A model generated the notes under the pieces. That model saw only the letters and a list, made by a program, of their open reading frames with translations. It was not told the DNA's origin and made no database searches. Positions 383 to 63,638 of a stretch of DNA of 64,000 bases are shown piece after piece. The translations under genes and the position numbers were made by a program. The first letter of the stretch is position 1; every line of letters begins with the position of its first letter. The DNA is from Pseudomonadota bacterium (GTDB lineage: Bacteria; Pseudomonadota; Gammaproteobacteria; UBA9214): the NCBI GenBank assembly GCA_039714975.1, contig JBDLIH010000007.1, positions 4,199 to 68,198 on the forward strand, written 5' to 3'.

Positions 383-1732
383 CTACCTGGCTGCCACCTT
401 AACAGACACCGTTTGCTTCTTGCCCGACTTGAAGGTCAGCGTCATATCGACCTCCTGCCCTGTACTCAGGTGTTCCTTCGGCCGCATCATCATCAAATGC
501 TTGCCCCCGGGCTCGAACTGGATTTGACCGTTCGCAGTAATCACCATGTCTGTCACTTCACGCATTTCCATAAAGCCATCGACCCTGGCCATTTCATGTA
601 CTTCGATAGTTTCATAAGCCTCGCTCTCCACCTTGACCAGTGTGATTTCTTCGGAGCCCGCGTTTACCAGCGTCATGTACCCGGCATTCACCGTCGCGTC
701 GGTATGCGCTTCACGAACCCATGCGTTCATGATTGCGACCACATCACCATCCAGTTTGGCCGGGCTGGTTGTGGACACTGCTTTCACGGGCGTCACAATA
801 CTATCCAGCGGTTCATCCCCCGCAATCCTTTGCGTTTCATCAGCCATGTAGTCGAGCAAGGACAATGCCTCTTCCTTGTTTAAGCGCATATTGGGCATGG
901 CCAGATTGTTGTACTGTTTGTAGAGTGCCATTGCGACAGGGTCTTTCTTCTTCAACATCTGGTCCGGCGCCTTCAGCCAGTCGAGTAGCCATTGCGGTTC
1001 ACGTTTGCGGGTAACACCCAGCAGGTCCGGCCCCAGCGCATCCGCCAGTTCATTACCGGTAATTGAATGGCATGAGGCACAGCGTGTACGAAATATTTGT
1101 TCACCCCGCGGAATACTGCGCAACTCGGGGGCATTCGCATAGTCATCACCACGCGGCGGCGCCTTCCAGCCTGACAGCCAGTTACCAACCTGATCAGCAA
1201 GCACATAGGGATTCTCGAAGGGCGAACGTTTCATCCACCGGCCGGTGGTCTGATTACCAATGATCATGTTGACATTGTGATTATTCGATCCTTCCTCCTG
1301 GATCTCCTCGATGTACAGGCCGAGCTTCCTGCGAATTTGAATAATGTCCGATTTTTTACCGGTCAAAAATGTCCAGTTGGCCTTGAATCTTTTGCGGTAC
1401 TCCTTGAAGACTTCCGGGGTGTCGTTTTCAGGATCGACTGAGATAGAGTAAAAGAAAACATCCTCGCCCACCCGGTCACCGAGGATATTTTGCACCCGGA
1501 CGAGTTGTGCCGTCTCCAGCGGACAGGTGTCCGGACAATGGGTATAGATGAAGTTGATCACGACGATCTTGTCCTTAATCAGATCATCAAAGAAATGCAC
1601 CGTTTTCCCTTCGTGGGTGACCAGCGGAACATTGGGGAAATAGTTCGCACCCCAGGGTGATGCTGAAGTGAAACCGGGGATACTACTCGTTATCAACAGG
1701 GCGAAGGCCGCCACCCAGGAATACCTATGCAT
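383..1732 (-). CDS. Three-domain copper-trafficking fusion: Sco1/SenC (thioredoxin fold) + class I cytochrome c + PCu(A)C (DUF461) copper chaperone; secreted
   Basis: N-terminal signal peptide. Sco motifs HCPDTCP (CxxxC) and DPENDTPEV. Heme c site CASCH. C-terminal PCuAC-type H/M copper motif (HEMARVDGFMEM..., GGKHLMMMRP). Confidence 0.75.
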   Translation of the reverse strand: MHRYSWVAAFALLITSSIPGFTSASPWGANYFPNVPLVTHEGKTVHFFDDLIKDKIVVINFIYTHCPDTCPLETAQLVRVQNILGDRVGEDVFFYSISVDPENDTPEVFKEYRKRFKANWTFLTGKKSDIIQIRRKLGLYIEEIQEEGSNNHNVNMIIGNQTTGRWMKRSPFENPYVLADQVGNWLSGWKAPPRGDDYANAPELRSIPRGEQIFRTRCASCHSITGNELADALGPDLLGVTRKREPQWLLDWLKAPDQMLKKKDPVAMALYKQYNNLAMPNMRLNKEEALSLLDYMADETQRIAGDEPLDSIVTPVKAVSTTSPAKLDGDVVAIMNAWVREAHTDATVNAGYMTLVNAGSEEITLVKVESEAYETIEVHEMARVDGFMEMREVTDMVITANGQIQFEPGGKHLMMMRPKEHLSTGQEVDMTLTFKSGKKQTVSVKVAAR

Positions 1733-4800: not shown

Positions 4801-5738
4801 CCATAACGGGCAGTGAGCAGTTTGGGCGGCAGGGTGCCGTCAAATGTCCACAGTGATTTGTGGTCCTGCACCGGCATGTCCGGATGGAACTTGATGGCGA
4901 TGCCTTCTGTCGTTCCCTCAAACCCGGGAGCGCCTACCGTGTTGTGGTAGAGCCCACCTAGACCAAATTCACCGTCATTGTAGTCGTGACCCTGCAACTG
5001 ATCACGTAAACCGCCGTTCACACGGGCGCCTGCCATCGCGCTCTGGAAATATTCTGTGGGAGTGAAATCGTCCCAGCGCTGATGCGACCAGCCCAGACCC
5101 GGCGGCCGACCTTCGGCAGGCGGATCATCCAGAGGTCTGCCGAGATAGTTTTCGATTTCCGCTGCCCAGGGATTCGTATCCTGGTCGTTGGCAAACACGG
5201 TTGGGACAGGCCAGATACTCTTGTCGAGAAAATCTTCAAGGGCCGCGCCATCCGGAGCACTCTGGGCACTCGCGGGTGCCGGTAACGACGTCCAGCCGTT
5301 TGGCTTTTTCGCGTCCAAGTCAAGTGCTTTGGTCCCGAACTCCTCGAAGCGCAAAATCTGCTGGGTAAATGCCTCGGCGCCAAACAATGGGCTGGGTGGT
5401 CCATTGCTCGGGACATTAAATACGGCCTCTTCTTCAGGCCGCTGATCTGCCGGCTGCAGCGTGTTAGACGCTTCCGCGTCTTCGGTATGGCCGGTTTCAC
5501 CGCCCTCAAAAGTACCCAGGTTCGCGTCTGGCAGGCCTTCGAGCGCACTACCATCACCATCGATCACCAGAGGAGTTAACGCTGAAGGATCTTGATTGTT
5601 GTCACCTCCGCCTCCTGGACCACCTTTGGCCGCTGCGCTGCTCGTGACGCCAAGGCACATGCTCAATAAGGCTGTCCCCAGGATTCCAGGAATGTGTGTA
5701 GTGTTACCAAAATACGGGAAATTTCTTTTTCTAGACAT
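1881..5738 (-). CDS. Giant multicopper oxidase, probable lipoprotein (~1285 aa; alternative start at 5762). CotA/bilirubin-oxidase-like core with long N- and C-terminal extensions
   Basis: All four MCO copper motifs are present in order: HTISTHEHNGH, THWFHDHM, HPIHIHFEEG, HCHNTQHEDHAM. Signal peptide with a lipobox-like LSMCLG. No Met-rich segment. About 300-aa low-complexity N-terminus and about 480-aa C-terminal extension. Confidence 0.8.
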   Translation of the reverse strand: MSRKRNFPYFGNTTHIPGILGTALLSMCLGVTSSAAAKGGPGGGGDNNQDPSALTPLVIDGDGSALEGLPDANLGTFEGGETGHTEDAEASNTLQPADQRPEEEAVFNVPSNGPPSPLFGAEAFTQQILRFEEFGTKALDLDAKKPNGWTSLPAPASAQSAPDGAALEDFLDKSIWPVPTVFANDQDTNPWAAEIENYLGRPLDDPPAEGRPPGLGWSHQRWDDFTPTEYFQSAMAGARVNGGLRDQLQGHDYNDGEFGLGGLYHNTVGAPGFEGTTEGIAIKFHPDMPVQDHKSLWTFDGTLPPKLLTARYGETVLFRHYNALPIDVAANRGFGVHTISTHEHNGHNPAESDGYANSFFFPGQFYDYRWPMTLAGSDTINTDASDPRAGSPDGAGGINQVPGDWRETMSTHWFHDHMLDFTAQNVYKGNAAMMNYYSAIDRGNEAIDDGVNLRFPSGEQLDWGNRDYDVNLLVAEKAWDDEGQLWFNPFNLMGFAGDVMTVNWLYKPYMEVRARQYRFRILNGSVSRFFKLALVDETGTPVPFYMVANDGNIMEHSVYFENGELPTQGIAERYDIIVDFSQFNAGDRLYMVNLMQQKDGVTADAAIPLADVVSGVYAAEHGDCDEDGIVGDCWVNGDPVVGKFLEFRVAEYDGEDLSMDPSEYVAGGKKMIPLNRPTEAELANALHRSFEFERQPTDEKPWVIETDGGKGFGMDPRRISAAPSKNSGGLEVWRLINSGTWSHPIHIHFEEGIILRRNGVAPPDYEQWARKDVYRLGPQPDSGDLVEIALRFREFAGTYMEHCHNTQHEDHAMLLRWDIEHPGQVKLMPTPLPTWDGVGYVDSVALPTFREGDDVGQFGPELDPLSVWIKNGVTISHFDNIRDEPIGDALDPNDNNERGGITFELEKGTHVDANGNERDVYFIMHDVSDEELSEELGIAWGGGLTGVNPAATAEASVKRKGNKLEWTFYDDLPNPVWANPACRVGDPDVNGEPCLNDANIPDVSDTNTYSPLRRVNIDGKDVVFNIIFMKWGDEDWEQNRTDRTCNSFPDSPPNTTCAYNGTAWGRYNNSGHVVEMDTDANPPYVTLKLHKSWASEHGDYLPYYIVVDTFPFPPARAMGVPYVPKHEFLGTTAVPLVQWMPGKRHVDPTFPPMPQPATADGGEYNCGSEGCGINGGGGPFGSQVGLPSYFMPEDDYSPMWHIGFAHWLEPHDRVVKGLKELRQLRKDGRVEILEWPAPPRVAEGDNTGVRVDDYDFTSANAPHVVNCPTPVTLDAAIHRARNAGK

Positions 5739-5873
5739 TGCGACCCCCCCAGGTTTTGACATGAATACACGCGCACCATTTTTTGAAGTTGCCTCATGGC
5801 CGCGATTGTTTGTTGGATTCGGGCGCTAATTTCTCACATGTAATAAATGTTGTATGTAACCCTGGATACGGGC

Positions 5874-19585: not shown

Positions 19586-20233
19586 TCAGGGCGTGATGAC
19601 CCCCATCCGGACGGCAAGACGGGTCAGTGCCGCAATATCGGAAACGCCGAGTTTCTTCTTCACGTTGGTGCAGTGGTGACCGACTGTTTTGGGACTCAGA
19701 TTCAGGATTCCGGCAATATCATTCACGGACTTGCTGTCTGCCAGCAAGTGAAAGACCTCAAACTCCCTGGGTGTCAAACCGGCAACCGCGTCCGACTCCG
19801 GCGTGGTTTTACGTTTAACAAGATATGACATCATTTCCTGTCCGACGTAGACCGAACCTGATGCGACTTGCCGGACGGCCTCTATCATGACCCGTGATGC
19901 GCTGCGCTTGGAAATGTAGCCCAATATTCCTGAATCGAGTGCACGCGCAAGGAAGACTTCGTTTTCATGCACGCTGAAGACGAGTATTTTCGCGGTGCTG
20001 TCCTTTGCCAGTATCCTCATACTGGCTTCCAGTCCGCCCATACCCGGCATTGACAGGTCCATCACCAGCACATCGGGCTGGTATTGGAAAAAGTCTGTAT
20101 AGGCAGATTCGCCATCTGCCGCCTCTGCAATCACCACAATATCCTCGGTGCCCTCAAGCAGCCTGCGGTAACCGGCGCGCACCACCTCGTGATCATCCAC
20201 CAGCAATACTTTTATCTTTCTGTCAGCGTTCAA
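19586..20233 (-). CDS. NarL/FixJ-family response regulator (REC + LuxR HTH)
   Basis: KVLLVDDHEVVR receiver. LuxR HTH LTPREFEVFHLLADSKSVNDIAGILNLSPKTV. Confidence 0.85.
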   Translation of the reverse strand: MNADRKIKVLLVDDHEVVRAGYRRLLEGTEDIVVIAEAADGESAYTDFFQYQPDVLVMDLSMPGMGGLEASMRILAKDSTAKILVFSVHENEVFLARALDSGILGYISKRSASRVMIEAVRQVASGSVYVGQEMMSYLVKRKTTPESDAVAGLTPREFEVFHLLADSKSVNDIAGILNLSPKTVGHHCTNVKKKLGVSDIAALTRLAVRMGVITP

Positions 20234-21633
20234 GCCTGCGCCTCTTCACCGGTCAATGGCACCGAAATCATAATTGAAAGACCTTTCCCTTCCCGGGCAT
20301 CCAGACTGAATTCACCACCCAGCGATTCCACTCTTTCCCGCATACCGATCAGGCCCAGACCACCTGCGGGCATTGTCGCAGGCAACCCGCGTCCATCATC
20401 CTCTATCTTGAGTAACAGCCGGTCAATTTCACCTGCCAGGTCAATAGTAACCTTGCTGGCCCCGGCATGCCTGGTGATATTCGTCAGGCATTCCTGAACA
20501 ATTCTGTATATCGTTATATTGATGCGCTCACCCAGATTATCCAGTTGACCCGTGGCATGCAGTAAGCAGCTTGTATCAGGATTTCTTTGCATCCAGGCAG
20601 ATATATCGTCCTTGAGTGCAGCGACCAGCCCGAGGTCATCGAGTATGCCCGGTCGCAGCCGTGCCATCATCGAGTGAACGCCATCATAGATTCGCGAGGA
20701 AACATCAAGAATCGCTCCGGCACTCGCCTCAACTCTCTCATCCCGTCCAGCGGAAATATCGCGGATCAACTCGGCATCCGCCTGTATCGCTGTAATACAT
20801 TGTCCCAGCTCGTCATGAAGTTCACGTGCCAAATGCTTGCGTTCCTCCTCCTGCACATCGAGGGAGGCATGCACCAGCTGGCGGTTTTCTGCCAGCAGTC
20901 TTCTGGATTTCCCTTCTTCCTGCTCAAGCAACCCCGTGCGGCTGGACACTTCACCTACCATGCGATTGAAGGCCGTTGCCGTCTTGCCCACCTCATCGGC
21001 CGTCTCGGTGGGAACCACAACGGAATAGTCGCCCGCACCGACCGACTCGGCTGCATCGGCCAGTACACCCAGCCGTCGGGTCAGGTGCAAACCGATCAAT
21101 ACCGTGGCCACCACCGTCAGAAAAATCTCCGATACGGCAATCACAATACCCCTGAAGCGGGCTTTGTGTATTGCGCTCTCCATCTGCGCAAGAGAAAAAC
21201 CGGCAAGCATCTTTCCCATGGGTTCACCTGAGACCTGAATGGCCCGCGAGGCATTAAAAACCGCATCGTCAACTGCTGAAGGATGTGAATCAACCCGGGG
21301 CCATGGCTGGGCCGGGGTGTTCCCCAGTGAGACGACCGGGTTTTCATCCCGGTCCAGCACGACCACGTAAGACAACTCCTTGTGGTTGACAACCTTGTTC
21401 AGATAATCCTGCAACGATGCATAGTCAACCGCAACCATGTAACTACCGGACGTGTCGGCGATCTGCTCAAGCAGGCTGCTTGCAGTATCCTGCAAGCGGT
21501 CCGCATGCGTCGTGTGAATAATCCTGATATTGCTCCACACCAGCAATGACAGCATCACGACCTCGATAGTCACCACCCCGGCAATCAGGCGGAAACGCAG
21601 GCTCTGGAAAAAGGAGAATTTTCCTTGCGTCAT
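20230..21633 (-). CDS. NarX-like sensor histidine kinase (2 TM, periplasmic domain, HAMP, HisKA_3, HATPase)
   Basis: H-box RELHDELGQCITAI. GxGxG ATPase region DDGRGL...GGLGLIGMRERV. Confidence 0.85.
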   Translation of the reverse strand: MTQGKFSFFQSLRFRLIAGVVTIEVVMLSLLVWSNIRIIHTTHADRLQDTASSLLEQIADTSGSYMVAVDYASLQDYLNKVVNHKELSYVVVLDRDENPVVSLGNTPAQPWPRVDSHPSAVDDAVFNASRAIQVSGEPMGKMLAGFSLAQMESAIHKARFRGIVIAVSEIFLTVVATVLIGLHLTRRLGVLADAAESVGAGDYSVVVPTETADEVGKTATAFNRMVGEVSSRTGLLEQEEGKSRRLLAENRQLVHASLDVQEEERKHLARELHDELGQCITAIQADAELIRDISAGRDERVEASAGAILDVSSRIYDGVHSMMARLRPGILDDLGLVAALKDDISAWMQRNPDTSCLLHATGQLDNLGERINITIYRIVQECLTNITRHAGASKVTIDLAGEIDRLLLKIEDDGRGLPATMPAGGLGLIGMRERVESLGGEFSLDAREGKGLSIMISVPLTGEEAQA

Positions 21634-48175: not shown

Positions 48176-49424
48176 AGCGCAAGGCCTCTGCCGGGTGGGT
48201 ACGTGCCGCCCGCCAGGCAGGATACAGTGTCGCCAGCAGACTCAGGCCCATGGACACCGACGCCATCACCCAGACATCCTTCCAGTGCAGTTCCGAGGGC
48301 ACCTCGCTGATGTAATACACATCAGCCGCGAGGAACTCTACATTAAAGAAATTTTCAATCGCAGGGACAATGGTCTCTACATTCAGGGCCAGACCAAGGC
48401 CTCCGGCAACACCCAGCGCCGTACCCAGCACACCGATTACCACTCCCTGGATGATAAATATTTTCATGATCGATCCTGGCGAGGCACCCAGTGTTCGCAG
48501 AATCGCGATATCAGAGCGCTTGTCAGTCACCACCATAATCAATGTCGATACGATATTAAATGCGGCAACGGCGACAATCAGTGTAAGAATAATGAACATC
48601 ACCCGCTTCTCCGTTTTTACAGCGCGGAAGAAATTTGCGTGCTGGCGTGTCCAGTCCTCGACCCGGTAACCACCTGGCAGCTGCACGGACAACTCCCGGG
48701 CCAGCCTGGGTGCATCATAGATATCTTCCAGCTTCAAACGCAGACCGGTGACGTTGTCATCCAGACTGAAGAGTCTGGCAGCATCCTTGATATGAACCAG
48801 TGCCACACCCCGGTCATATTCATACATGCCAACCTCAAAAATCCCGACAACCGTAAAACGCCTCAGTCTCGGCAGGATGCCCGTTGGGCCAATTGTGACC
48901 TGGGGTGAAACAACGGTAACCGAGTCTCCGACACCGGCCCCCAGTACGATAGCCAGCTCACTGCCAAGGATGATGTTGTACTCACCTGCTTCTAATAAGG
49001 TCAGGTCACCGCCGTTGATGTGCGAGACAACATCGGAGACCCCGCCTTCCATCCCCGGCATCACCCCCCTGATCAAGGCACCACTGACGCGCTTGCCCTG
49101 ACTCAGCATTGACTCACCCTGCACGTAGGGCGCCATTGCCAGAATTTCCGGCTGCGCCTCAAGGCTTTGTGACAGTTCCTGCCAGTCAGCCAGTTTTCCC
49201 GCGTAGGTGGTAACGGTGGCATGCGAGGCCATTCCGAGAATGCGATCCCGCAATTCCTTTTCAAATCCATTCATAACAGACAGCACCGTAATCAGCGCCG
49301 TCACGCCAAGAGCTATCCCGAGCATTGAGGTCATGGAGATAAAGGAGATGAAATGCGTCCGTCTCTTTGAATGCGTATAGCGCAGACCGACGAATAATTC
49401 GAGTGGACGAAACATAGCCGGCAA
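48168..49424 (-). CDS. lolC: Lipoprotein-releasing system permease (LolC/LolE, FtsX-like)
   Basis: MacB-like periplasmic domain and four TM helices. Single permease gene present. Confidence 0.85.
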
Positions 49425-49527
49425 TTAAATCACATCTACCGGTTAATTGCGCATGCTTATATCCACGAAAGAAGGTGTGCCGGTGTCCATCCGGGCCACG
49501 GCAAGGGTTAGTGCTCGCCCGGCTGCG

Positions 49528-50016
49528 CTAGTTAAGCTTGCTCCTGTCAACCAGGTCTGCCGATAATTCAGTCCAGCAGGTCAATTCACTTTCCCGGGTT
49601 AGCTGATTACGTAACGGCACCGCCAGCCCCCTTGATAACCACGCTTCACCGCTGTAAAGCGCAATAATGGCCTTGCGTAACATGGAGACGGTGGAGGTAC
49701 GACCGATGACACCCTGAACGCCGAGGGAAACGGCCGCCAGCGTTTTGTACTCATGCTCACCTTCCACCACCATCAGAGACCGGATCGACGGATAGAATTC
49801 ATGCAAGGAGCGGATCGCCTGGTGACCTACCTGCTCCATGAGGGCTTCATCCAGCACCAGCACATCACTCCGGCTCAGCGCGGTCCAGATGCCAACCTCG
49901 TCCAGACTGACCGGTTGAGCAATGAGGTTGATATCAGGGCAGTCAGCAAGCAACTCGGCACAGCCCGGGTAGTCCATGCTGCCAGCACACGCGACAGTAA
50001 CATTTATTTTCTTCAT
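49528..50016 (-). CDS. Stand-alone atypical receiver-like domain (NarL-type REC fold lacking the N-terminal acidic pair)
   Basis: LVLDEALM at the phospho-acceptor position and a GVQGVIGR...AIIALYSGEAWLS alpha4-beta5-alpha5 pattern, but the acidic pair is replaced (VTVACAG). Confidence 0.5.
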   Translation of the reverse strand: MKKINVTVACAGSMDYPGCAELLADCPDINLIAQPVSLDEVGIWTALSRSDVLVLDEALMEQVGHQAIRSLHEFYPSIRSLMVVEGEHEYKTLAAVSLGVQGVIGRTSTVSMLRKAIIALYSGEAWLSRGLAVPLRNQLTRESELTCWTELSADLVDRSKLN

Positions 50017-50204
50017 AACCAGTTGTTTTTATAAGCCTAAATTACTTTACGTCGCGAGGCGTTTTGACACAATTGGACTTAGGTACCAACCACTTGCCGT
50101 GTCCCGATCCTGCACCACAATCACCGCGCAACCTTTTCTCAAAGGAGCATCCGCTGCTGCCGATAAGCTGATGAATAACTTCCGTAAATATTTACAGGTT
50201 CATC

Positions 50205-50900
50205 ATGACACTGCCAGGTCTGCGCCGCTATTTCTTCAAGCAACTGTCCGCCATCCTTATTGCAGGACTGATCAACCTGGCATGCGTTCCCCGCTTACCG
50301 GCCGATGAGTTTACCCCGTCAAGACAGATTTTAGGGAAAGTTGAGCAGGACTACGGTAATTATGCACGACAGCGCGTATTCACCTGGTACAAGCTGATTA
50401 ATGACTACAATGATGCACGCCCTCTGGACAAGCTTGAACTCGTCAACAACTTTTTTAACCAGCTGGCTTTCGTTAATGACAGTGAACTTTGGGGCCAGGA
50501 AGATTACTGGGCCACTCCGCTACAGATGCTCTCCTCCAATGGCGGCGATTGTGAAGACTTCTCGATTGCAAAATACTTTACCTTGCGGGAAATGGGCATC
50601 CCGGAAGAGCGCATGCGCCTGACCTACGTCAAGGCACTTCAGCTCGACCAGGCACATATGGTTCTCACCTATTTCCAGACACCGGACTCAGAACCACTGA
50701 TACTTGACAATCTTGTCGCCGATATACGCCTTTCATCAGAAAGAACCGACCTGTTACCTGTCTACAGCTTCAACGGTAATGGCCTGTGGCTCGCAAAAAA
50801 GAAGGGGGAAGACGAGCGCGTCGGTCGCTCAGCACGCCTGAGCCGATGGCAGGAGGTGATTGCCCGAATCAACGATGAACAAATCCCGCTGATTCGATAA
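50205..50900 (+). CDS. lapG: Periplasmic transglutaminase-like cysteine protease (BTLCP), LapG homologue
   Basis: Signal peptide. GGDCEDFSIAKYFTLREMGI catalytic-Cys motif of DUF920/BTLCP. Immediately upstream of the lapD-like gene. Confidence 0.8.
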   Translation: MTLPGLRRYFFKQLSAILIAGLINLACVPRLPADEFTPSRQILGKVEQDYGNYARQRVFTWYKLINDYNDARPLDKLELVNNFFNQLAFVNDSELWGQEDYWATPLQMLSSNGGDCEDFSIAKYFTLREMGIPEERMRLTYVKALQLDQAHMVLTYFQTPDSEPLILDNLVADIRLSSERTDLLPVYSFNGNGLWLAKKKGEDERVGRSARLSRWQEVIARINDEQIPLIR

Positions 50901-50946
50901 GCCGCACTGCAAGTACCGCGCAGCCATTCATAAGCCGGATCAGTAG

Positions 50947-52914
50947 ATGACCCTGTACCGACAACTAACACTCAGCATCGCTCTGTTGCTCGTCACCGGT
51001 TTCCTGGGTTCCGTGATCATCAGCACGGAAAACCTGCGCACTTTTCTGCTGACCCAACTGGAATCACATGCACAGGACACCGCCACATCGCTGGGCCTAT
51101 CACTGTCTCCACCCATGCAAGTTCGTGACATGACAATCATCACCTCTATGGTTGATGCGGTCTTTGACCGGGGTTACTACCAGCAAATAGACATCACTTC
51201 ACTCAATGGCGAGACGCTGTTGTCCCGCAGCAATCAAACAGGGAACAGGGACGTACCTGCCTGGTTCACGGAGCTCGTTGACCTGCAGCCACCCGCCGCA
51301 GAAGCACTGATCATGTCAGGCTGGCAACAGGCAGGGAAAGTACATGTCGCCAGTCATACAGGGCATGCCTACAATGAATTATGGTCCAACACTGTTGATA
51401 CTTTCCGCCTGTTTCTGGCATTGGCGATCGTCATCATCGTTACCGGTCTCATTGCAGTAAACATCCTGCTACGCCCATTACGTCTGCTTGAGTCACAGGC
51501 GGATGCTATTTGCAATGCGTCATACCCGTTACAAAAGAAGTTACCGCGCACACGTGAACTTCGACGCGTTGTCACGGCCATGAATCGCATGTCCGGGAAA
51601 ATTGGCATTATCTTTGCAGAACAATCCGCATTGACCGAAAGTTTGCGCGTACAAGCCTACAAAGATCCCGTCACCGGCCTGGGTAACAGGCGTTATTTCG
51701 ATCGCCAACTGGAAACACTTCTGGGATCACGCGAAGAACCATCCACGGGGGCATTACTGCTGCTTGAGTTACACGGTCTGTCGGAGATCAACCTGTCCGC
51801 CGGCTATCCGGCAGGTGACCAATACCTGCAAGCTGCCGCCAACCTTATCAGCAAACGGATTAAACGGCTTGATAGTTGTTTTGCTGCAAGAATTTCAGGT
51901 GCCGGTTACGGCATCGTTGCAGTCGGGCTGGACAGGGAGGGTGCAGAGTCTCTGGCTGAGGACCTTTGCCATGAACTGCTACAGCTGCACACCGATGGGC
52001 TCGAAAGCAATGAGAACATCATCGTCCATATTGGAGTAACCCTGTGGAAACAACAGGATGTTTTACACGATCTGCTCGCCGAGGCAGATAGCTCCTTGCG
52101 TGCAGCGCAATCCACCGGCAAGAACAGCTGGAAACATTTTACACCTTCATCAGGTACACAGAAGCCGATTTATGGTAGCGGGCACTGGCGCACTATCCTG
52201 CAGCATGCGATTAACACTGAAAACATCACCCTGTGTACACAGCCTGTCTTCCATACCGGCAGTAAATCAATCATTCTGCCCCATCATGAGATTTTGCTGC
52301 GCATTCCGGACCATGCCGGCAACCCCATCACGGCAGGACTATTTATGCCTATGGCCGAGCGTTTTGGACTGGCGAGTGATTTCGACAAGCTGGCAGTCCG
52401 CAAGCTGCTAACACACATGGAATCGGAGCATAACACCCAACCCGCTTATGCGATCAATCTCTCATCCGGTTCTTTACATAACCCGGTCTTCATCCAGTGG
52501 CTTTGCCGCCGGCTGGAAAGCGCGTCCGAAAACGCCGGACGAATATTAATCGAGTTCCCTGAATACGGTGCACTGATCAATATACAGGACACGCGCAATC
52601 TTATAGAACGACTGGATTCGCTTGGCTGCCAGTGCGGTATAGACCATTTTGGCCAGGGTTTTCATTCTTTTGGCTACTTGCGCAATATAAAGGTCGGCTA
52701 CCTTAAACCTGACGGCAGCTACACACGTGATATTGACAAGGACGAAGACAACCAGTTTCTCATACGCGCACTCACCGAAGCTGCCCACAGCGTAGACATC
52801 GCCGTCATTGCACAGGCAGTTGAGACCAGCGCAGAACGAGATACCCTGACAGCCATGTATCTTGACGGCATCCAGGGATTCCTGACCGGCAGCCCACAAC
52901 CACTACAGACCTGA
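50947..52914 (+). CDS. lapD: LapD-like inner-membrane c-di-GMP receptor (LapD_MoxY_N periplasmic domain, HAMP, degenerate GGDEF and EAL)
   Basis: 655 aa. GGDEF is replaced by ISGAGYG, EAL is degenerate, and DDFG becomes DHFG. Architecture and size match LapD. Confidence 0.75.
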   Translation: MTLYRQLTLSIALLLVTGFLGSVIISTENLRTFLLTQLESHAQDTATSLGLSLSPPMQVRDMTIITSMVDAVFDRGYYQQIDITSLNGETLLSRSNQTGNRDVPAWFTELVDLQPPAAEALIMSGWQQAGKVHVASHTGHAYNELWSNTVDTFRLFLALAIVIIVTGLIAVNILLRPLRLLESQADAICNASYPLQKKLPRTRELRRVVTAMNRMSGKIGIIFAEQSALTESLRVQAYKDPVTGLGNRRYFDRQLETLLGSREEPSTGALLLLELHGLSEINLSAGYPAGDQYLQAAANLISKRIKRLDSCFAARISGAGYGIVAVGLDREGAESLAEDLCHELLQLHTDGLESNENIIVHIGVTLWKQQDVLHDLLAEADSSLRAAQSTGKNSWKHFTPSSGTQKPIYGSGHWRTILQHAINTENITLCTQPVFHTGSKSIILPHHEILLRIPDHAGNPITAGLFMPMAERFGLASDFDKLAVRKLLTHMESEHNTQPAYAINLSSGSLHNPVFIQWLCRRLESASENAGRILIEFPEYGALINIQDTRNLIERLDSLGCQCGIDHFGQGFHSFGYLRNIKVGYLKPDGSYTRDIDKDEDNQFLIRALTEAAHSVDIAVIAQAVETSAERDTLTAMYLDGIQGFLTGSPQPLQT

Positions 52915-52973
52915 ATGCCGGCAATTCGGTCAATATTGCCTTCCTGACAGATTCGCTAAATCGTAGCGGATGT

Positions 52974-53690
52974 GTGCCGATAACAAGCAGGTACACGACT
53001 ATTCAGGAAATTGAAGACATGCCAGCGAGTGACTCACGAAAAGTACCCGTTATTCTTGTAGCGAGTAACAACACACCGCTTACCGACAGATTGACAAGCG
53101 TTCTTGATGAAGTCTTCTCACTCGAGGTCACTACCAGTTCCTCAGGTTTTGGCAGACTGATTAGCCAGTCAAACCCGCACCTGGTTTTTCTTGACCCGGC
53201 CCTTTTTAACGACACCTTGATGGAAACCATCACTGTTGTAATTAATCAGGCCACACAGACACGCATCATTATTCTCGAGGATGATGAAAACATGCCTGTT
53301 GACCAGATGTCCCTGTTCAAAACGGGTGTACACGGGTTTCTATCGCATACGATCACATCCACTCTGCTGTTGAAAGCTGCACACGCCATCTGTAACGGTG
53401 AAATCTGGGTGCCGCGACAGCTTATTACCAAATTAATCGGTGAGCTTGCACGTGACAGCAGCGCAGGTACACACACGCTCAGCTTCGCCGGCAACAGCTC
53501 GATCGAGCATTTAACGCCACGGGAAATGCAAGTCGCGGAAATGGTTCACCGCGGTGGCAACAACAAGGCGATCGCACGTAAACTCGACATATCCGAACGT
53601 ACTGTAAAGGCCCACTTGAGCGCCATATTCCGGAAACTGGACATTGAAAACCGCCTGCACCTGGCACTGTTTTTTAGTGAATTAAGGTAG
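52974..53690 (+). CDS. LuxR-family regulator with an atypical (pseudo) receiver domain
   Basis: C-terminal LuxR HTH LTPREMQVAEMVHRGGNNKAIARKLDISERTVKAHL. N-terminal REC-like domain with the acidic pair replaced (ILVASNN). Confidence 0.7.
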   Translation: MPITSRYTTIQEIEDMPASDSRKVPVILVASNNTPLTDRLTSVLDEVFSLEVTTSSSGFGRLISQSNPHLVFLDPALFNDTLMETITVVINQATQTRIIILEDDENMPVDQMSLFKTGVHGFLSHTITSTLLLKAAHAICNGEIWVPRQLITKLIGELARDSSAGTHTLSFAGNSSIEHLTPREMQVAEMVHRGGNNKAIARKLDISERTVKAHLSAIFRKLDIENRLHLALFFSELR

Positions 53691-53778
53691 CCACTACAAG
53701 GTACCGCCAAGCCGGTCCCGTCCCGGGTTCCTCACAGCAACAGCAAATCACTTTATTTCAGGCATTACTGGCTATAGG

Positions 53779-54957
53779 ATGTCAGTCATGTCGCATGACT
53801 CGATACTATTCTCAATTTTTCTGATTTTTACCGGTGCCGCGGTGCTCGCGGCGCTGGCACTGTATGCACGACAGTCCCTGCTGGTTGCCTACATACTGCT
53901 CGGTGGACTGGTTGGGCCATGGGGTTTGAAGCTGGTCAGCGACACTGCCATCATCCAGCAAATTGGTCACATCGGGATTATTTTCCTGCTGTTCCTTCTC
54001 GGGCTGAACCTGCAGCCCGCACAACTGGTGCGCATGCTGCGTGAAGCCATCGTGGTCACCGTTATCAGTTCCCTGGTTTTTGGCATCGTCGGCATGCTGA
54101 TAGGCTGGGCTTTTGGCTACAACCACTTTGAAAGCCTGATCATTGGTGCTGTCATGATGTTCTCGAGCACAATTATCGGCCTGAAACTGTTACCAACAAC
54201 TGCCTTGCACCACCGTCATGTGGGTCAGGTCATGATCAGTATCCTGCTGCTGCAGGACATCCTTGCCATCGGCATACTGCTTTTCCTGGAGGGCCTGTCA
54301 CAGGCGGTGATGGAGTGGCAACAGGTTGCGGCACTGGCCCTGTCATTGCCCTTGCTCGTCATCATCTCCCTGCTCTTTGAACGCTTCATACTGCAACGAT
54401 TGATGCGGCGTTTCGACACCATACAGGAATACATTTTTCTCACCGCCATTGGCTGGTGCCTTGGCATGGCGCAACTGGCGGAAATCATGGGGCTGTCATA
54501 TGAAATCGGTGCCTTTATTGCCGGCGTCTCGCTGGCTACCAATCCCATTGCCCTGTTTATAGCAGAAAGCTTCAAGCCACTGAGAGACTTCTTTCTTATT
54601 ATGTTTTTCTTCTCCCTGGGTGCCAGTTTTAACATTACAATATTACCGGAAGTCATTATTCCTGCTGCAGTTATTGCCTCATTAATGCTGATTTTCAAGC
54701 CCCTTGTATTTGCCCACCTGCTGCGGCAATCCGGCGAATCATCGGGGCTCTCAAACGAGGTTGGCGTGCGTCTGGGGCAAGTCAGTGAATTCTCCCTGAT
54801 GATCGCCGTGCTGGCGCTTAATGCTGGCGCCATAGGCTCCAGGGCCTCCTATCTGATTCAGGCAACCACCCTGATCACATTTATTGTTTCTTCCTACATC
54901 ATCATGCTGAATTATCCAACCCCGATAGCCGTAAGCGACCGACTCAGAAAAGACTAG
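53779..54957 (+). CDS. Cation:proton antiporter (CPA/Kef-type Na+/H+ exchanger family membrane protein)
   Basis: About 11 TM helices. Na_H exchanger family pattern. Confidence 0.7.
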   Translation: MSVMSHDSILFSIFLIFTGAAVLAALALYARQSLLVAYILLGGLVGPWGLKLVSDTAIIQQIGHIGIIFLLFLLGLNLQPAQLVRMLREAIVVTVISSLVFGIVGMLIGWAFGYNHFESLIIGAVMMFSSTIIGLKLLPTTALHHRHVGQVMISILLLQDILAIGILLFLEGLSQAVMEWQQVAALALSLPLLVIISLLFERFILQRLMRRFDTIQEYIFLTAIGWCLGMAQLAEIMGLSYEIGAFIAGVSLATNPIALFIAESFKPLRDFFLIMFFFSLGASFNITILPEVIIPAAVIASLMLIFKPLVFAHLLRQSGESSGLSNEVGVRLGQVSEFSLMIAVLALNAGAIGSRASYLIQATTLITFIVSSYIIMLNYPTPIAVSDRLRKD

Positions 54958-55082: not shown

Positions 55083-56483
55083 ATGGCACACCCGCAGCAT
55101 GCCAAGACACCCAAACTTAATGCCCTGTTGATTGGCAAAAGGACTGTACCCAGCGGTTGCAGGGTGCTCAATGTCAGCCAGCAAGGCATGTCATTGCAAT
55201 GTGATCCTGATGGCCGTTTGCTGACCTTCATTAATGGCGACACTGTTGATATCTACCTGTCTGTCCAGCATATCAACGGACACAATAAATTCACTATTCC
55301 CGCCATAGTCAGTCACGTTGATGAAAGCACTATTGATGTTGTCTTTCACTGTACCGACCCCGAACTCGCCGGATTGATTGAGTCTTACCGAACCAGCAAG
55401 TCACACAACCTTGAAGCCTCGATTGACCACCGACAGGCCGGCAGGAAAGAGAGTACGGTCAAACCTGTCGCTGCAAATGAAAGCGTCAGCTATAACGCAC
55501 AAACCAAGGGACCCACCAGCCAGAGCAGTCGATCATTTTATTCAGGTCTATTTGCCCTGTTTATTACCACTCTGGTCCTTCTCGGTGCGTACTACTACAT
55601 TTCCAGTATCAATAAGCGCCTGAATACACTGGAAACGGCCAGCCGTTCCCACACTGATGAACTTGCCGAGGTGCAGACGCAGGTATTCAGCAGCCGCCTG
55701 CAAGACGGCAGATACGCATCGCTCAATGCACGCATGAAAGCCCTGACCGATGCCTTCCAGTCATTTGAAAAACGGGTCACACAAACACTGCCACAAGAAC
55801 CGGTTATCGTCGCTACGGCAGCGCCTGAACCAGTCAGGGAAGCAGCACCTCGTGAAGCTCGAAAACCGACCGTTGGCACTCCAAAACCACAGACAGAAGC
55901 AAGGAAGAAGGCCACCGCACCTGTCGAGAAGAAACCAAAGACCGCATCACCTGCCAAAGAAGCACACGTCGTCATGGCAGAGAAGCAAACTATTGAGGAA
56001 CCAGATACACCTTCCCTGCAGAAATACCCGGCCATCAAGACCCAAGCCACTGCTCCAGCCGCAACCACACCGGCCCAAACTGTGCCGAAAGCGGCCCCAT
56101 CAGCCACGAGCCAGGACAAACCTGACAAGACCGGAACAAAACAAACACCCGCAATCAAACAGGGACCTGCAGCAAGACCCGCTGCACCCCCTGTGGTGCC
56201 CCCTGTAGCCACGCCAACGCGGACAGAGAAACCTGCAACCGCTCGTACAGGACCGTGGGTTATCAACCTGCTCTCATCAACTGACAAGGCATATGTAGAA
56301 AAAGCCATGGCTGATATACAGTCAAAGGGATTTAACGTTGTCATAAAAAGTGCAACTGTCAAGGGCAGGCAATACTGGCGCCTGCAAGCACCCGGTTTCG
56401 GGTCAATGGCAAAAGCCAAAACCGCCGCCGAGCCCATCAAAGAGCAACTGAAAATAAAGGATGTCTGGATCTTCAAGCGCTAA
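55083..56483 (+). CDS. PilZ-like N-terminal domain, TM helix, Pro/Ala-rich linker and C-terminal SPOR peptidoglycan-binding domain
   Basis: NVSQQGMSL (DxSxxG-like) with an RxxxxxxR upstream. One TM helix. SPOR-like C-terminus GPWVINLLSSTDKAYVEKA...VKGRQYWRLQAPGFGSMAKAK. Start refined to MAHPQHAK. Confidence 0.55.
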   Translation: MAHPQHAKTPKLNALLIGKRTVPSGCRVLNVSQQGMSLQCDPDGRLLTFINGDTVDIYLSVQHINGHNKFTIPAIVSHVDESTIDVVFHCTDPELAGLIESYRTSKSHNLEASIDHRQAGRKESTVKPVAANESVSYNAQTKGPTSQSSRSFYSGLFALFITTLVLLGAYYYISSINKRLNTLETASRSHTDELAEVQTQVFSSRLQDGRYASLNARMKALTDAFQSFEKRVTQTLPQEPVIVATAAPEPVREAAPREARKPTVGTPKPQTEARKKATAPVEKKPKTASPAKEAHVVMAEKQTIEEPDTPSLQKYPAIKTQATAPAATTPAQTVPKAAPSATSQDKPDKTGTKQTPAIKQGPAARPAAPPVVPPVATPTRTEKPATARTGPWVINLLSSTDKAYVEKAMADIQSKGFNVVIKSATVKGRQYWRLQAPGFGSMAKAKTAAEPIKEQLKIKDVWIFKR

Positions 56484-60026: not shown

Positions 60027-62093
60027 TCAGACAATGCCCGGGTCAGGATCACTGATCGTAATCAGGCTGGTGAGTGCATAACGCAATTTTTCCTGATCTA
60101 CAGGTTTCAGAAGAAATCGGGACACACCTAACCGGTCACATTTTTCATATATCTCGGTCGTTGCATCACCGGTCACGACAAAAATCGGTATGGCCACATC
60201 CTCCGACGTCCGTGCCCGGTACAATTCAATCACGTCAAAACCGGACATACCCGGCATCTGGATGTCAAGCACCATCAAGTTATATACACCACTGCGCAAT
60301 TTTTCCAGTGCCATTGGGCCTGATGAGGCGAAATCCGACTCGACACCGATATCATCCAGCATGGCTTTCATCACATGACGATTCAGCCTGCAGTCGTCCG
60401 TCACCAGCACATTGAGCCTTTTTCCACTCTCCAAAAAAATCGCAAGATCATCTCTCAGATTATCTCGTGTGTGTGTATCCAGCATCCGGGAAGCATAAGA
60501 AAGCACATTCTCAATCTGCTCACAGGTCTCTATTACCAGGTGAAATCCTGCACGAAGATAGTCATCGTGTTTACTTGCATCCTCACAAAGTACAACCAGG
60601 CAGGAACCTGCCTTATGACCCTGGCGGATTACATCATCAATCTCGGCATCAGTAACCGCACACGAATCCACGATTACGCAGCATTCACCCAAATCAATAT
60701 CAGAGCGATCCAGTTCGCCCCAGTTATCGAATGCCCTCATCCCGCCAAATACGGCAGGTACTGTGTCTTGCGGTAGCCTCGTGCCAACTACACAGCAACC
60801 GGGCAGCGTACCCTTTGATCTACTTCCTGTTTGCTGATCACCAGACACCTCTACCAAAGGTATATGAAACCAGAATCGACTCCCCTTATTTTCTTCGCTC
60901 TCAAGGCCAATCTGTCCACCCATCAAGTCAACAAGTCGTTTCGCAATCGATGTTCCCAGCCCGGTTCCGCCATAGCGTCGTTGCACAGAGTCATCCGCCT
61001 GCCGAAAACGCTCAAAGATACGAGACTGCATGGCTGACGGTACTCCAACACCGGTATCGATCACCTCAAACAGGATTTGCCTGTTGCCATCTTCACTCTG
61101 AAAACTGCTGATCCTGACCTTAATCTCACCAACGGACGTAAATTTGACTGCATTCCCCACCAGATTCACCAGAATCTGTTGCAAATGGTCAACATCACCA
61201 CGCACCCGGGGCGGCAGGGTGATATCCATATCAGTGATGTACCTGACGCCACCCTGCTCAGCATGCATCGAGAACATGCCTTCGACCGAGCGAATCAGCC
61301 CATATAAATTGAACGTTTCCTCTTCTATGCGTACATGGCCTGACTCAATCCTGGATAAATCCAGTACACCCTCAACGAGCGTTGTAAGACTTGCGGAGGC
61401 ATCTCTTATACTTCTCGTTATCTGTGCCCGCCTGACATCATCCATTTCCCGGTCCAGCATCTGACTAAACCCCGCCACAGCATTCAGCGGTGTCCTGATC
61501 TCATGACTGACGTTTGCCAGAAATCTGGTTTTTTCCTGATTGGCTTTCTCTGCTTTGTCTTTTTCCAATTGCAATCTCTTCAACATTATCGACACGTACA
61601 GCGGAATAATAGAGAGCAAAATGATACCCATAACTGTAAACAGCACCTCTTCACTCCAGAATGTTGTTGTATTAACAACAACGATAAAGCCAGCTAACGA
61701 CAATATCGCACAAATAATAAGCTCCTTATATCCATATCTAAAACCATTTCCAACCGTGAGCCATAGATATACAGCAAAGAATGGGACACCATAGTCACCT
61801 AACAAAAAGAGCAGAGCGCACACTAGTGCAACATCAAATACCATGTAGACAGTATGTCTCCACTGCATACCATTCGGGTATAAATATGTTTGAAAAATAA
61901 TTATTAGCGAGAAAACTGTATAAAAGACACCCAATGTAATAACTGGATGATGGAAACCACCATCTAATCTATCTGTTAGCGCCAGAAACGCCGCATATAA
62001 AACACCGCTGACAACCAGCAATAACCGCATACCAGCCTGCTCCAGTTCGACATTCCTGCTTGCCTCTTGCAACAACCCCTTTCTAGCTTCCAT
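60027..62093 (-). CDS. Hybrid sensor histidine kinase / response regulator with an N-terminal polytopic membrane sensor domain
   Basis: About six N-terminal TM helices. H-box ANVSHEIRTPLNAV. HATPase G-boxes. C-terminal REC (VLVTDDCRLNRHVMKAML...LMVLDIQMPGMSG). Confidence 0.85.
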   Translation of the reverse strand: MEARKGLLQEASRNVELEQAGMRLLLVVSGVLYAAFLALTDRLDGGFHHPVITLGVFYTVFSLIIIFQTYLYPNGMQWRHTVYMVFDVALVCALLFLLGDYGVPFFAVYLWLTVGNGFRYGYKELIICAILSLAGFIVVVNTTTFWSEEVLFTVMGIILLSIIPLYVSIMLKRLQLEKDKAEKANQEKTRFLANVSHEIRTPLNAVAGFSQMLDREMDDVRRAQITRSIRDASASLTTLVEGVLDLSRIESGHVRIEEETFNLYGLIRSVEGMFSMHAEQGGVRYITDMDITLPPRVRGDVDHLQQILVNLVGNAVKFTSVGEIKVRISSFQSEDGNRQILFEVIDTGVGVPSAMQSRIFERFRQADDSVQRRYGGTGLGTSIAKRLVDLMGGQIGLESEENKGSRFWFHIPLVEVSGDQQTGSRSKGTLPGCCVVGTRLPQDTVPAVFGGMRAFDNWGELDRSDIDLGECCVIVDSCAVTDAEIDDVIRQGHKAGSCLVVLCEDASKHDDYLRAGFHLVIETCEQIENVLSYASRMLDTHTRDNLRDDLAIFLESGKRLNVLVTDDCRLNRHVMKAMLDDIGVESDFASSGPMALEKLRSGVYNLMVLDIQMPGMSGFDVIELYRARTSEDVAIPIFVVTGDATTEIYEKCDRLGVSRFLLKPVDQEKLRYALTSLITISDPDPGIV

Positions 62094-62151: not shown

Positions 62152-63552
62152 TCATGATGCCATCCGAAATACGTCCAGTCTATCAGGGTCTTGTCGATCG
62201 ACAATGAATTTCGCGAAGATACTGTCCTGAACGTTATTCAAGAGAAATTCAGGCAACGAGTGGCGTAGCGCGGTAGCCACAACCAACTCAGAGGGAGCAA
62301 TACCAGGGCGAATGGTTCGCAACCAGGAACCGAAAGAGGCCCACACCAGCTTGGGAACGTTGGCAGACAGATACTGAAGCAGTCCCTGGGAGACAACGCC
62401 AGCGTGAATAAATACATGGTAGGCGTTGATCTTGCGCTTGACGGCATCGCGGTAGGCTGAGGATTCCCGATGAAGGTATTGGTTACCATTTCTCCGATGT
62501 AGCGGTTTCATCTCCTTCATCCAGAAATGGTATGAGAAGGAGCCGACGACGCGTACCGCTTGCTTAAAGCCGTGTTCGATTTTGAATCGCAGACCGTAGA
62601 GACGAATAATGTCTATGGCACTCAGGGACGTGTCAGTAGCCATCAGCAGGCAGCGTCCCCGGGTCGGGTGAATGACCACCACGAAGCGCACGATCCGTCC
62701 AACGGGCCGCCAAAGCAGGTCACAGACCCGATACTGGAGGGTGACATTTTTATCGCCATAGACAGGGCTGGCGGCTTGCTCCATCGCCTGTCCATCATTG
62801 AACAGTGACTTGAGCGCGATTTTCTTGCCATAGACTCTGGGCCGGCCTCTTTTCTTGACGCCTTGGTGTTTATATGGGGTGTAGGCCACCGCATTGGATC
62901 TCACCCGCGTTACCAAATGATTATCCTGGTCCAGCAGACCAGTGATGATTTTCTGACTGGCATAATATGCGTCCGCCACAAAATAGAACGGTTGCTGGAT
63001 ATCGACAATCTTGAGCAAGGCAAGCATTTCATCGAGCAAGGTGCGTTTGTCGCGATTGGACCACACCAGGCCTTCGTGAATGCGAGTGGCCAGCGGCACG
63101 GCAAACACACTCTCGGCGGCCTGAACCAGCACCGAGACCGCCTGCAAGGAGTGCCCCATGATGTATTCCGGCTTCGTATTCGAGTCCGATTCCTGGTGAA
63201 GCAGTTTGACGGCAGGCATTTTCTTGCCGCTCTTTGGTACCTTGATGCCATCACCGACCAATACCAGTCGGCCATTGACGCGCAGCGGGTCAGGAAATAG
63301 TCGCAGCACCACTTGCGCCCACGGCGCGGACATCCTATCAAGCAGCACACCGGTGCTGTGAAAGTTATCGAGCAGGTTGTCATAGAACCGCTCATGTAAT
63401 CCCAGTGCGTGCACAATGCTGGTCACACCGAGCAAATCCGTGCGCACCGTCAAGCCTGCCACGCAGGTCGCAAACCACAGAAAGGTTCGCAGACGCGTAC
63501 AGCCCGGGCGCAATAGCCAGATTGCATCCCACCAGCAGATCCACAATTGCAT
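62152..63552 (-). mobile_element. DDE transposase (IS4/IS701-like) with a candidate IS span of about 62115-63587
   Basis: Transposase-like protein of about 466 aa. Imperfect terminal inverted repeat (aagccaataata vs atgccaacaata, 10 of 12). Inserted about 22 bp upstream of the hybrid kinase start codon. Confidence 0.55.
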
Positions 63553-63638
63553 GTTGTGTCGGCTCCTGTGTCTTCTATTGTTGGCATTGAAGAATAGCAT
63601 ATGTATGCTAAGCTTTTAGCAGGCAAAGGCCATTACAA

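Follow-up and report, generated by a model that had tools for sequence, protein, structure and literature searches.

A LapG/LapD module without a local adhesin, bracketed by two receiver-like proteins, in an uncultured gammaproteobacterium

In the Lap system, binding of cyclic di-GMP (c-di-GMP) to the non-catalytic EAL domain of the receptor LapD allows the periplasmic domain of LapD to capture the protease LapG through a tryptophan-bearing loop. When c-di-GMP falls, LapG is freed and cleaves a surface adhesin. In Pseudomonas fluorescens the system comprises LapD, LapG, LapA and LapEBC. Here we describe a locus of this kind in a 64-kb stretch of contig JBDLIH010000007.1 (hereafter the window), which belongs to a metagenome-assembled genome (MAG) of an uncultured gammaproteobacterium. 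The locus has four genes: one on the minus strand for a stand-alone receiver-like protein of 162 amino acids that has no helix-turn-helix (HTH) domain, called REC162 here, followed on the plus strand by lapG, lapD and a gene for a LuxR-type regulator. All four open reading frames (ORFs) were found at the coordinates given in an earlier reading of this DNA, made from the letters without database searches (the sequence-only reading).

The explanation that we favour, with somewhat better than even confidence, is that LapG and LapD are intact, that their substrate is unlinked, that a conserved 20-nucleotide (nt) box is the operator of the LuxR-type regulator and that REC162 is a modulator. As comparison with related loci shows, the ancestral site held, in this order, genes for LuxR, an HlyD-type membrane fusion protein (MFP), an HlyB-type ABC transporter, LapD and LapG, with the genes for REC162 and an RTX adhesin pointing the opposite way. 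The window lineage then dropped the adhesin and the genes of the type I secretion system (T1SS) and retained the remaining four under selection, and the LapG substrate would be encoded elsewhere in this genome. The LuxR-type regulator, bound at the dyad within the box, would act without phosphorylation and probably without c-di-GMP. REC162 would modulate it by protein-protein contact and, having a canonical K...W[L/F]SR motif and no HTH, may be its c-di-GMP-sensing partner.

The LapG protease and the LapD receptor

The two central proteins can be assigned to the LapG and LapD families with high confidence from their sequences. LapG matches the Pfam family Peptidase_C93 (PF06035) with 59.5 bits against a cut-off of 27, and its best NCBIfam model is LapG, at 249.8 bits, under the equivalog cut-off of 320. 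It aligns over its whole mature length with LapG of P. fluorescens (4U65_E, E=7e-56) and also with LapG of Legionella pneumophila (4FGO, E=9e-51), and Cys116 (GGDCEDF), His151 (AHMVL) and Asp168 (LILDNL) fall in the conserved GDCED, AHMVL and LxLD columns of these structures. The Cys of LapG is essential. The sequence-only reading had recognised a bacterial transglutaminase-like cysteine protease (BTLCP) from the catalytic Cys in GGDCEDF, and the complete Cys-His-Asp triad agrees with that call.

LapD scores 150.6 bits for LapD_MoxY_N (PF16448), 81.8 for GGDEF and 171.3 for EAL, and the NCBIfam LapD model covers it end to end with 542.6 bits, under the cut-off of 1020. This matches the architecture previously proposed for the 655-residue protein; the HAMP domain named in that proposal has a matching region, yet it was detected only weakly (20.1 bits against a cut-off of 25). 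In the periplasmic domain, a G125-W126-Q-Q loop stands at the position of W125 of P. fluorescens LapD, the residue to which LapG binding has been assigned, and a G-W-x-[QE] loop is conserved in 15/15 LapD orthologs. F223, S227 and R234 align with F222, A226 and R233, the autoinhibitory positions of the S helix in P. fluorescens LapD.

Both cytoplasmic domains had been described as degenerate. For the GGDEF domain this stands: S317-G-A-G-Y321 is aligned to RGGEF of P. fluorescens LapD, and SG[AG]x[YF] replaces GG[DE]EF in all LapD orthologs. Degeneration of the EAL domain is real, but milder than had been implied. Its signature is E-I-L, and it keeps the equivalents of RocR E175, R179, N233, E265, E268, D295, K316 and D318. 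Gln623 replaces E352 and His567 replaces D296 in 12/12 orthologs compared, Gln623 being placed at the E352 position because of its spacing from the Lys. By a published seven-residue criterion, six of the seven catalytic positions are kept, so that the site narrowly falls short of an intact one. We infer that the domain binds c-di-GMP and hydrolyses it little or not at all. In the P. fluorescens protein the signature is KVL and the two Asp of DDFG are replaced by QR; with EIL and six of seven positions, the window LapD is much closer to an intact enzyme.

The window pair shares with the Lap proteins of P. fluorescens, Vibrio cholerae, Legionella and Bordetella a C-H-D BTLCP, LapD_MoxY_N, the GWxQ loop, a putative S helix, a dead GGDEF domain and an EAL domain predicted here to be non-catalytic. 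The differences are that the window locus lacks an adhesin and a T1SS, that its proteins score under the NCBIfam equivalog cut-offs, and that it has its own LuxR-type regulator together with an HTH-less paralog.

The missing adhesin and the related loci

No RTX repeat cluster, T1SS gene or large protein with an N-terminal [T/A/P]AA[G/V] site, the published definition of the LapG cleavage motif, was found within the 64-kb window. The sequence-only reading had noted that an RTX adhesin was missing for at least 9 kb on either side, and the absence extends to the whole window. An adhesin hidden there was ruled out, as neither RTX clusters nor homology to adhesin N- or C-termini was present. Orphan lapGD pairs are common and already published, and hence not novel, because no LapA-like protein could be identified in 2,720 of the 3,740 species that encode the LapD/LapG pair and LapG of P. 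aeruginosa acts on the unlinked CdrA. The likeness to the P. aeruginosa LapG/LapD-CdrA system lies in the encoding of lapGD away from its substrate, which in the window genome is placed elsewhere by inference. CdrA is a two-partner-secretion protein, whereas the ancestral substrate at the window locus would have been a T1SS RTX adhesin.

When species-representative genomes were scanned for the REC162 family, 19 loci were obtained (designated by L numbers), all in MAGs of uncultured Gammaproteobacteria, and in 19/19 of them REC162 adjoins lapG and is divergently transcribed. In GTDB, L023, L025 and L027 are titled 'Halobacteria archaeon', yet the locus is gammaproteobacterial in its lolCDE, lpxK and comEC synteny; the titles probably reflect mislabelling or bin contamination.

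In five deep-branching loci (L020, L021, L023, L024 and L025), luxR and lapD are separated by genes for an HlyD-type MFP and for an ABC transporter, and an RTX adhesin gene lies directly downstream of REC162 on the same strand (start positions L020:10625-, L021:6264-, L023:10596-, L024:6379- and L025:10591-). As in P. fluorescens, the locus of these relatives holds an RTX adhesin with a retention-type N-terminus together with a T1SS. Three of the five adhesin-bearing loci are cut by contig ends; the adhesin ORF of L023 spans 1743 residues with Big_9, Cadherin_4, VWA and RTX repeats. The N-terminal module of the adhesins includes sequence such as DPAEIQAAILAGRDP, and in all five loci the N-terminus has the invariant linker DPAxIQAAILAGRDPxxDAPAP. 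The canonical di-alanine site PAAGE follows this linker only in L020 and L021. L023-L025 have PG[TV]GE, and in these adhesins the LapG site either differs or sits elsewhere.

Remnants of the lost genes survive in several relatives, including an adhesin C-terminal remnant in L026 and HlyD remnants in L002/L022, L016 and L027. When compared with the adhesin and T1SS genes of the relatives, the window locus contains no remnant of either. The comparison shows that, as judged from gene content, it was at this site that the window lineage lost its adhesin and T1SS genes.

The remaining four genes are under purifying selection. Measured against the close relatives L009-L011, the ratio of nonsynonymous to synonymous substitution rates (dN/dS) is 0.17-0.19 for LapG, 0.15-0.18 for LapD, 0.10-0.12 for REC162 and 0.13-0.16 for LuxR, with a value of ~0.06 for LolC as comparison gene; the ranges noted per protein are 0.07-0.19 for LapG, 0.10-0.18 for LapD and 0.10-0.13 for REC162. 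In the adhesin-less lineages compared, the values are 0.15-0.19 for LapG and LapD and 0.10-0.16 for REC162 and LuxR. Such low values indicate that the genes are in use and that the LapG target is probably encoded elsewhere in the genome, in line with the earlier suggestion of a proteolytic target that is elsewhere or different.

In the long contigs of L008/L012 and L015, frameshifts interrupt the genes for LapD, the Na+/H+ exchanger, LuxR and also LapG. Since housekeeping neighbours are also frameshifted, assembly indel errors are more likely than pseudogenes.

The flanking receiver-like proteins, the conserved box and the surroundings

REC162 and the LuxR-type regulator score 17.5 and 18.7 bits for Response_reg, against a Pfam cut-off of 30.2, whereas the receiver of a canonical regulator in the same window (19586-20233) scores 90 bits. 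The key receiver positions of that regulator read DD / D / S / K; those of REC162 read C-A / D56 / V / R, and those of LuxR A-S / D74 / E / H. Across 52 REC162 and 120 LuxR homologs, only the phospho-acceptor Asp of a canonical two-component receiver is kept (D56 in 50/52 and D74 in 120/120). The sequence-only reading was therefore right about the missing N-terminal acidic pair of both proteins and about the HTH of the LuxR-type protein (Table 1). The loss of phospho-acceptor residues that it anticipated holds for the acidic pair, Thr/Ser and Lys, but not for the Asp itself. Because the acidic pair, Thr/Ser and Lys are replaced in both families, the phosphorylation-independent action that it suggested for the two flanking proteins is well supported by these alignments.

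An hhalign comparison (96.4%, E=1e-9) identifies the two receivers as paralogs. That REC162 might be a pseudogene left by truncation was ruled out by the fixed length of 162 residues throughout its family and a dN/dS of ~0.1. The probable start of LuxR is Met16 (nt 53019), since most homologs have 223 residues; its ORF opens at 52974.

The published c-di-GMP site of V. cholerae VpsT is K120 together with W[F/L/M][T/S]R (W131, R134). The proline-variant homologs QstR and BrpT are reported to function independently of c-di-GMP, the QstR mutant P129T to be c-di-GMP-dependent and the mutant R130A to have a modest effect only. REC162 fits the canonical motif with K115 and W126-L-S-R129. In its family the strict fit is found in 40/52 members and the W and R in 52/52. 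The LuxR-type regulator departs from it with W145-V-P-R148; W-[VI]-P-R, with invariant Pro, occurs in 121/121 homologs, and this proline variant makes it probable that LuxR is c-di-GMP-independent. A PDB search aligned its 'GEIWVPRQL' on 'DEMWLTRKL' of VpsT and K134 on the VpsT Lys, with VpsT as third-best sequence match (E=1.7e-9). Between lineages the W and R are invariant and the third residue drifts (S, P, Q). The window clade has W[L/F]SR in REC162 and W[V/I]PR in LuxR, the deep adhesin-bearing clade has WVSR and WIQR, and the L005 type has WMPR and WIQR, respectively.

Confident AlphaFold2 models of both proteins (predicted local distance difference test scores of 81.4 for REC162 and 81.8 for LuxR) show a receiver with an extra helix starting just after the motif; in REC162 this is a (beta-alpha)5 fold with the extra helix at 129-142. 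Fold searches with the two models returned generic NarL/FixJ receivers and did not discriminate a likeness to VpsT, which ranks 5-7 in the LuxR search, no better than LiaR, VraR or NarL. Specific similarity to VpsT was found for neither protein. The features held in common with VpsT are a phosphorylation-independent receiver with an extra helix, a Lys at W-11 and a W-x-x-R that fall on K120/W131/R134, and, for LuxR, a GerE HTH and an Ile at the I141 position. Unlike VpsT, REC162 has no HTH or detectable specific similarity, and LuxR has Pro at motif position 3. LuxR resembles QstR of V. cholerae and BrpT of V. vulnificus in its W-x-P-R, its LuxR-type HTH and a putative phosphorylation site that appears dispensable there. 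It is unlike them in having V/I rather than L as motif residue 2, in its Lap linkage and in its pairing with an HTH-less paralog.

The case for c-di-GMP binding by REC162 consists of two things, the aligned motif and the genomic context, and our confidence in such sensing is low to moderate. Truncated LuxR-family anti-activators encoded near a full-length regulator, with which they could form inactive heterodimers, are known from TrlR and TraS of Agrobacterium, which are autoinducer-binding LuxR proteins and recent truncations. REC162 is like them in lacking the DNA-binding domain and in being encoded near the full-length protein, but its family is old, of fixed length and maintained by purifying selection.

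The REC162 family proper is small: 1.84 billion representatives, searched exhaustively with a profile, contained ~21 members at E<=2.4e-23. The next tier consists of 56 short HTH-less proteins with GE-x-W-x-x-R in 51/56, mostly as WVPR. A metagenome scan with one HTH-less subgroup gave 80 loci, 20 of them long enough for analysis; in 7/20 a full-length LuxR-type gene with GE[VI]W[VI]xR lies immediately upstream on the same strand, and no Lap genes were found near the pairs in those seven. These pairs in unrelated loci suggest a recurring module, with the Lap linkage specific to the present clade. More generally, HTH-less receivers of ~145-180 residues with K...GE-x-W-x-x-R (P0195-P0323; L029-L108) form a broad class that appears to be unannotated in soil and sediment metagenomes; their genes often directly follow that of a full-length LuxR-type protein with the same element, in the absence of Lap genes, with example loci L048, L058, L060, L073, L079, L081 and L082.

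The spacer between REC162 and lapG is 188 bp long and holds the 20-nt box, TTGGTACCTAAGTCCAATTG as read on the REC162 strand (also written TTGGTACCTAAGTCCAA). The window contains the box once, where chance would give 0 copies. It is identical in 15/21 loci and has 1-2 mismatches in the other 6, its distance from the ATG of REC162 being constant, and it is preserved even where REC162 is only 40-48% identical. A gap-free upstream alignment of 19 sequences reads box / TTGnnn / 17 nt / TA[AG][AG][CG]T, and the order upstream of the gene is dyad TTGG-N9-CCAA, weak -35, 17-nt spacer, -10, leader ATAAAAACAA and ATG. The transcription start of REC162 is predicted ~21 nt ahead of the ATG; the dyad centre lies ~44 nt upstream of this predicted start and overlaps the -35, which we take to be the geometry of a class II activator site such as the lux box. 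A generic sigma-70 scan found no promoter in the REC162-lapG intergenic region; the predicted REC162 promoter has a weak -35 and scores below the threshold of that scan.

A second copy of the box core is present in the REC162-adhesin spacer of 5/5 adhesin-bearing loci, in the same orientation and at the same spacing to an extended -10, and adhesin-less loci have no second copy at the corresponding place. The same factor thus appears to control both REC162 and the adhesin. We conclude with moderate confidence, from sequence and position, that the box is the operator of the LuxR-type regulator of the locus.

The spacer also contains blocks conserved in the window clade only, CAAAGGAG and GCCGATAAGCTGATGAAT, in its lapG-proximal half. 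GCCGATAAGCTGATGAAT pairs as an inverted repeat with ATCAGCTTACG near the REC162 side in 7/8 relatives (together, these elements fall in window 50140-50187 and 50038-50050); the ATCAGCTTACG arm is degenerate in the window itself, and no RNA covariation was found for the pair.

Table 1. Coordinates of the features in the window
Feature	Position	Strand	Basis or remark
REC162, HTH-less stand-alone receiver-like protein, 162 aa	49528..50016	-	Response_reg, family alignment
REC162 W126-L-S-R129 codons	49630-49641	-	VpsT-position motif
A-rich leader	50023..50032	-	6 nt 5' of REC162 start codon; in every locus examined
Inferred -10 hexamer TAAAGT, REC162 promoter	50044..50049	-	conserved geometry
Inferred -35 TTGTGT, REC162 promoter	50067-50072	-	17 nt upstream of inferred -10
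20-nt box (dyad plus TTG of weak -35)	50070..50089	-	
LapG-type periplasmic cysteine protease (BTLCP), C116/H151/D168	50205..50900	+	
LapD-type c-di-GMP receptor	50947..52914	+	LapD_MoxY_N, weak HAMP, S helix, SGAGY, EIL
LuxR/GerE-type regulator with pseudo-receiver	53019..53690 (ORF from 52974)	+	GerE 67.7 bits
LuxR K134 and W145-V-P-R148	53406-53417 (WVPR codons)	+	proline variant of VpsT motif
Membrane protein, C-terminal SPOR, weak N-terminal PilZ-like domain	55083..56483	+	context gene

The window is a housekeeping stretch of chromosome with the fab cluster, pabBC, mltG, tmk, RNase E, kdsB, lpxK, exbBD, comEC, lolCDE, gltX, glnS and two tRNAs, and the four-gene locus is bounded by lolC and the Na+/H+ exchanger gene. 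The SPOR/PilZ-like gene, for which relatives show synteny, may be a further gene near the locus with a link to c-di-GMP. The window protein scores 15.2 bits for PilZ, below the cut-off of 22.5, and that of the window clade keeps NVSQQG ([D/N]xSxxG) and has lost RxxxR; the L002/L022 ortholog has both PilZ motifs and scores above the cut-off (35.9 bits). The canonical regulator mentioned above belongs to a NarL-type two-component pair with a HisKA_3 kinase containing HAMP (19586-21633, minus strand). A hybrid histidine kinase gene (60027-62093, minus strand; HisKA, HATPase_c, receiver), syntenic in relatives, adjoins a DDE transposase gene (62152-63600). Near the other end, a gene for a 1293-residue protein with a multicopper-oxidase domain and DUF7482 (1881-5762, minus strand) neighbours one for a fused SCO1/cytochrome c/PCuAC copper-chaperone protein (383-1732, minus strand).

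Alternative explanations and significance

Several observations weigh against the explanation favoured here. LapD is absent at the locus in 5/19 genomes (L009, a close relative of the window, and L016-L019) and in the L005 type (L005-L007). These LapD-less loci keep LapG, REC162 and LuxR. In L013, LapD (L013:2291-3520) ends after residue 411, without an EAL domain. The LapD-sequestration arm would therefore be dispensable in some relatives. The EAL domain of the window LapD may have residual phosphodiesterase activity, as six of seven catalytic positions are kept. On the single contig covered, no adhesin or T1SS is tied to this genome. The LuxR-type regulator is merely the nearest candidate for the factor that binds the box. 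With respect to REC162, VpsT is not among its top 50 fold matches, a PDB profile search with its family gave no VpsT at E<=1, and by both searches it is no closer to VpsT than ordinary NarL/FixJ receivers are. In addition, the position of the VpsT dimer residue I141 is Arg136 in REC162, and the variation of the third motif residue between lineages (S, P, Q) counts on the same side.

The alternative that survives best, which we regard as a serious possibility that is nevertheless less probable than the favoured account, is that REC162 is no c-di-GMP sensor at all. It would instead be a dominant-negative or partner subunit, heterodimerising with its LuxR paralog via the receiver and extra helix, its W..R element serving dimerisation as in QstR and BrpT. 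Since REC162 would itself be under the control of the box, such a subunit would exert feedback on the box promoter. The W and R show the same invariance in the LuxR family with its proline variant and in most of the short proteins of the wider class, which mostly have WVPR, and W[VM]PR occurs in five representatives of the REC162 family proper and in the L005 locus. The c-di-GMP-independent function of QstR and BrpT and the modest effect reported for R130A point the same way, as does a sequence and fold of REC162 that is not specifically VpsT-like. On the other hand, REC162 of the window clade keeps the canonical W[L/F]SR with Lys at W-11, and its gene lies within a c-di-GMP effector locus.

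It is unlikely, in our estimation, that the box is not a LuxR operator and instead binds some other factor or belongs to an RNA element. For a transcription-factor site, near-perfect conservation of 20 nt is unusually strict in lineages whose proteins share only 40-50% identity, and the link between LuxR and the box is a prediction from sequence. Against this stand the dyad symmetry and its fixed position against a weak -35, with a 17-nt spacer to the -10, at two promoters, and every locus of sufficient extent has a gene for a GerE-type regulator. Neither an Rfam match nor covariation speaks for an RNA structure: an Rfam scan of 49400-53900 at E<=1 gave a chance snoRNA match only, and for a riboswitch or structured leader in the REC162-lapG spacer RNAalifold returned a covariation term of -0.34 with one compensatory pair.

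Much less probable is a decaying relic, in which lapG and lapD were left without a target by the loss of the adhesin and T1SS and are themselves heading for loss. The disappearance of these genes without remnant in the window and the loss or truncation of LapD in several relatives would fit decay. However, the ORFs are intact with all functional residues conserved, LapG is kept in every locus, unlinked LapG targets are well documented, and the dN/dS of adhesin-less lineages is that of maintained genes. Finally, we consider it very improbable that the two flanking proteins work as ordinary response regulators that depend on phosphorylation by a kinase encoded nearby, such as the hybrid histidine kinase at 60027-62093, since the conservation of that kinase a few genes away from the locus and of the phospho-acceptor Asp in both families is set against the replacement of all other key residues, unlike in the canonical regulator of the window, against the receiver scores of ~18 versus 90 bits, and against the apparent dispensability of the putative phosphorylation sites of VpsT and QstR.

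The LapG/LapD core of the favoured explanation is ordinary, one more member of a well-mapped family. The novelty of the locus is modest and lies in the regulator pair, in an HTH-less protein with the canonical VpsT motif and in a box that links the pair to an adhesin. The related loci may be read as a stepwise reduction of a Lap locus, in which the adhesin and T1SS went first and LapD next, with LapG and the regulators always kept, which suggests that retention and control of LapG do not require a LapD encoded beside it. The box offers a handle for finding the unlinked LapG target, which would be expected as a large surface-protein gene preceded by a second box. Beyond Lap loci, the pairing of a LuxR-type protein with an HTH-less paralog that carries the VpsT motif is a testable candidate for a split c-di-GMP-responsive transcription switch. 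Here we can offer it only as a speculative and rather doubtful model, that of a split VpsT in which the short subunit senses c-di-GMP and signals by heterodimerisation to a c-di-GMP-blind, DNA-binding LuxR paralog. If true, it would be a new type of c-di-GMP effector, wired in this clade to the Lap adhesin promoter via a lux-box-like operator.

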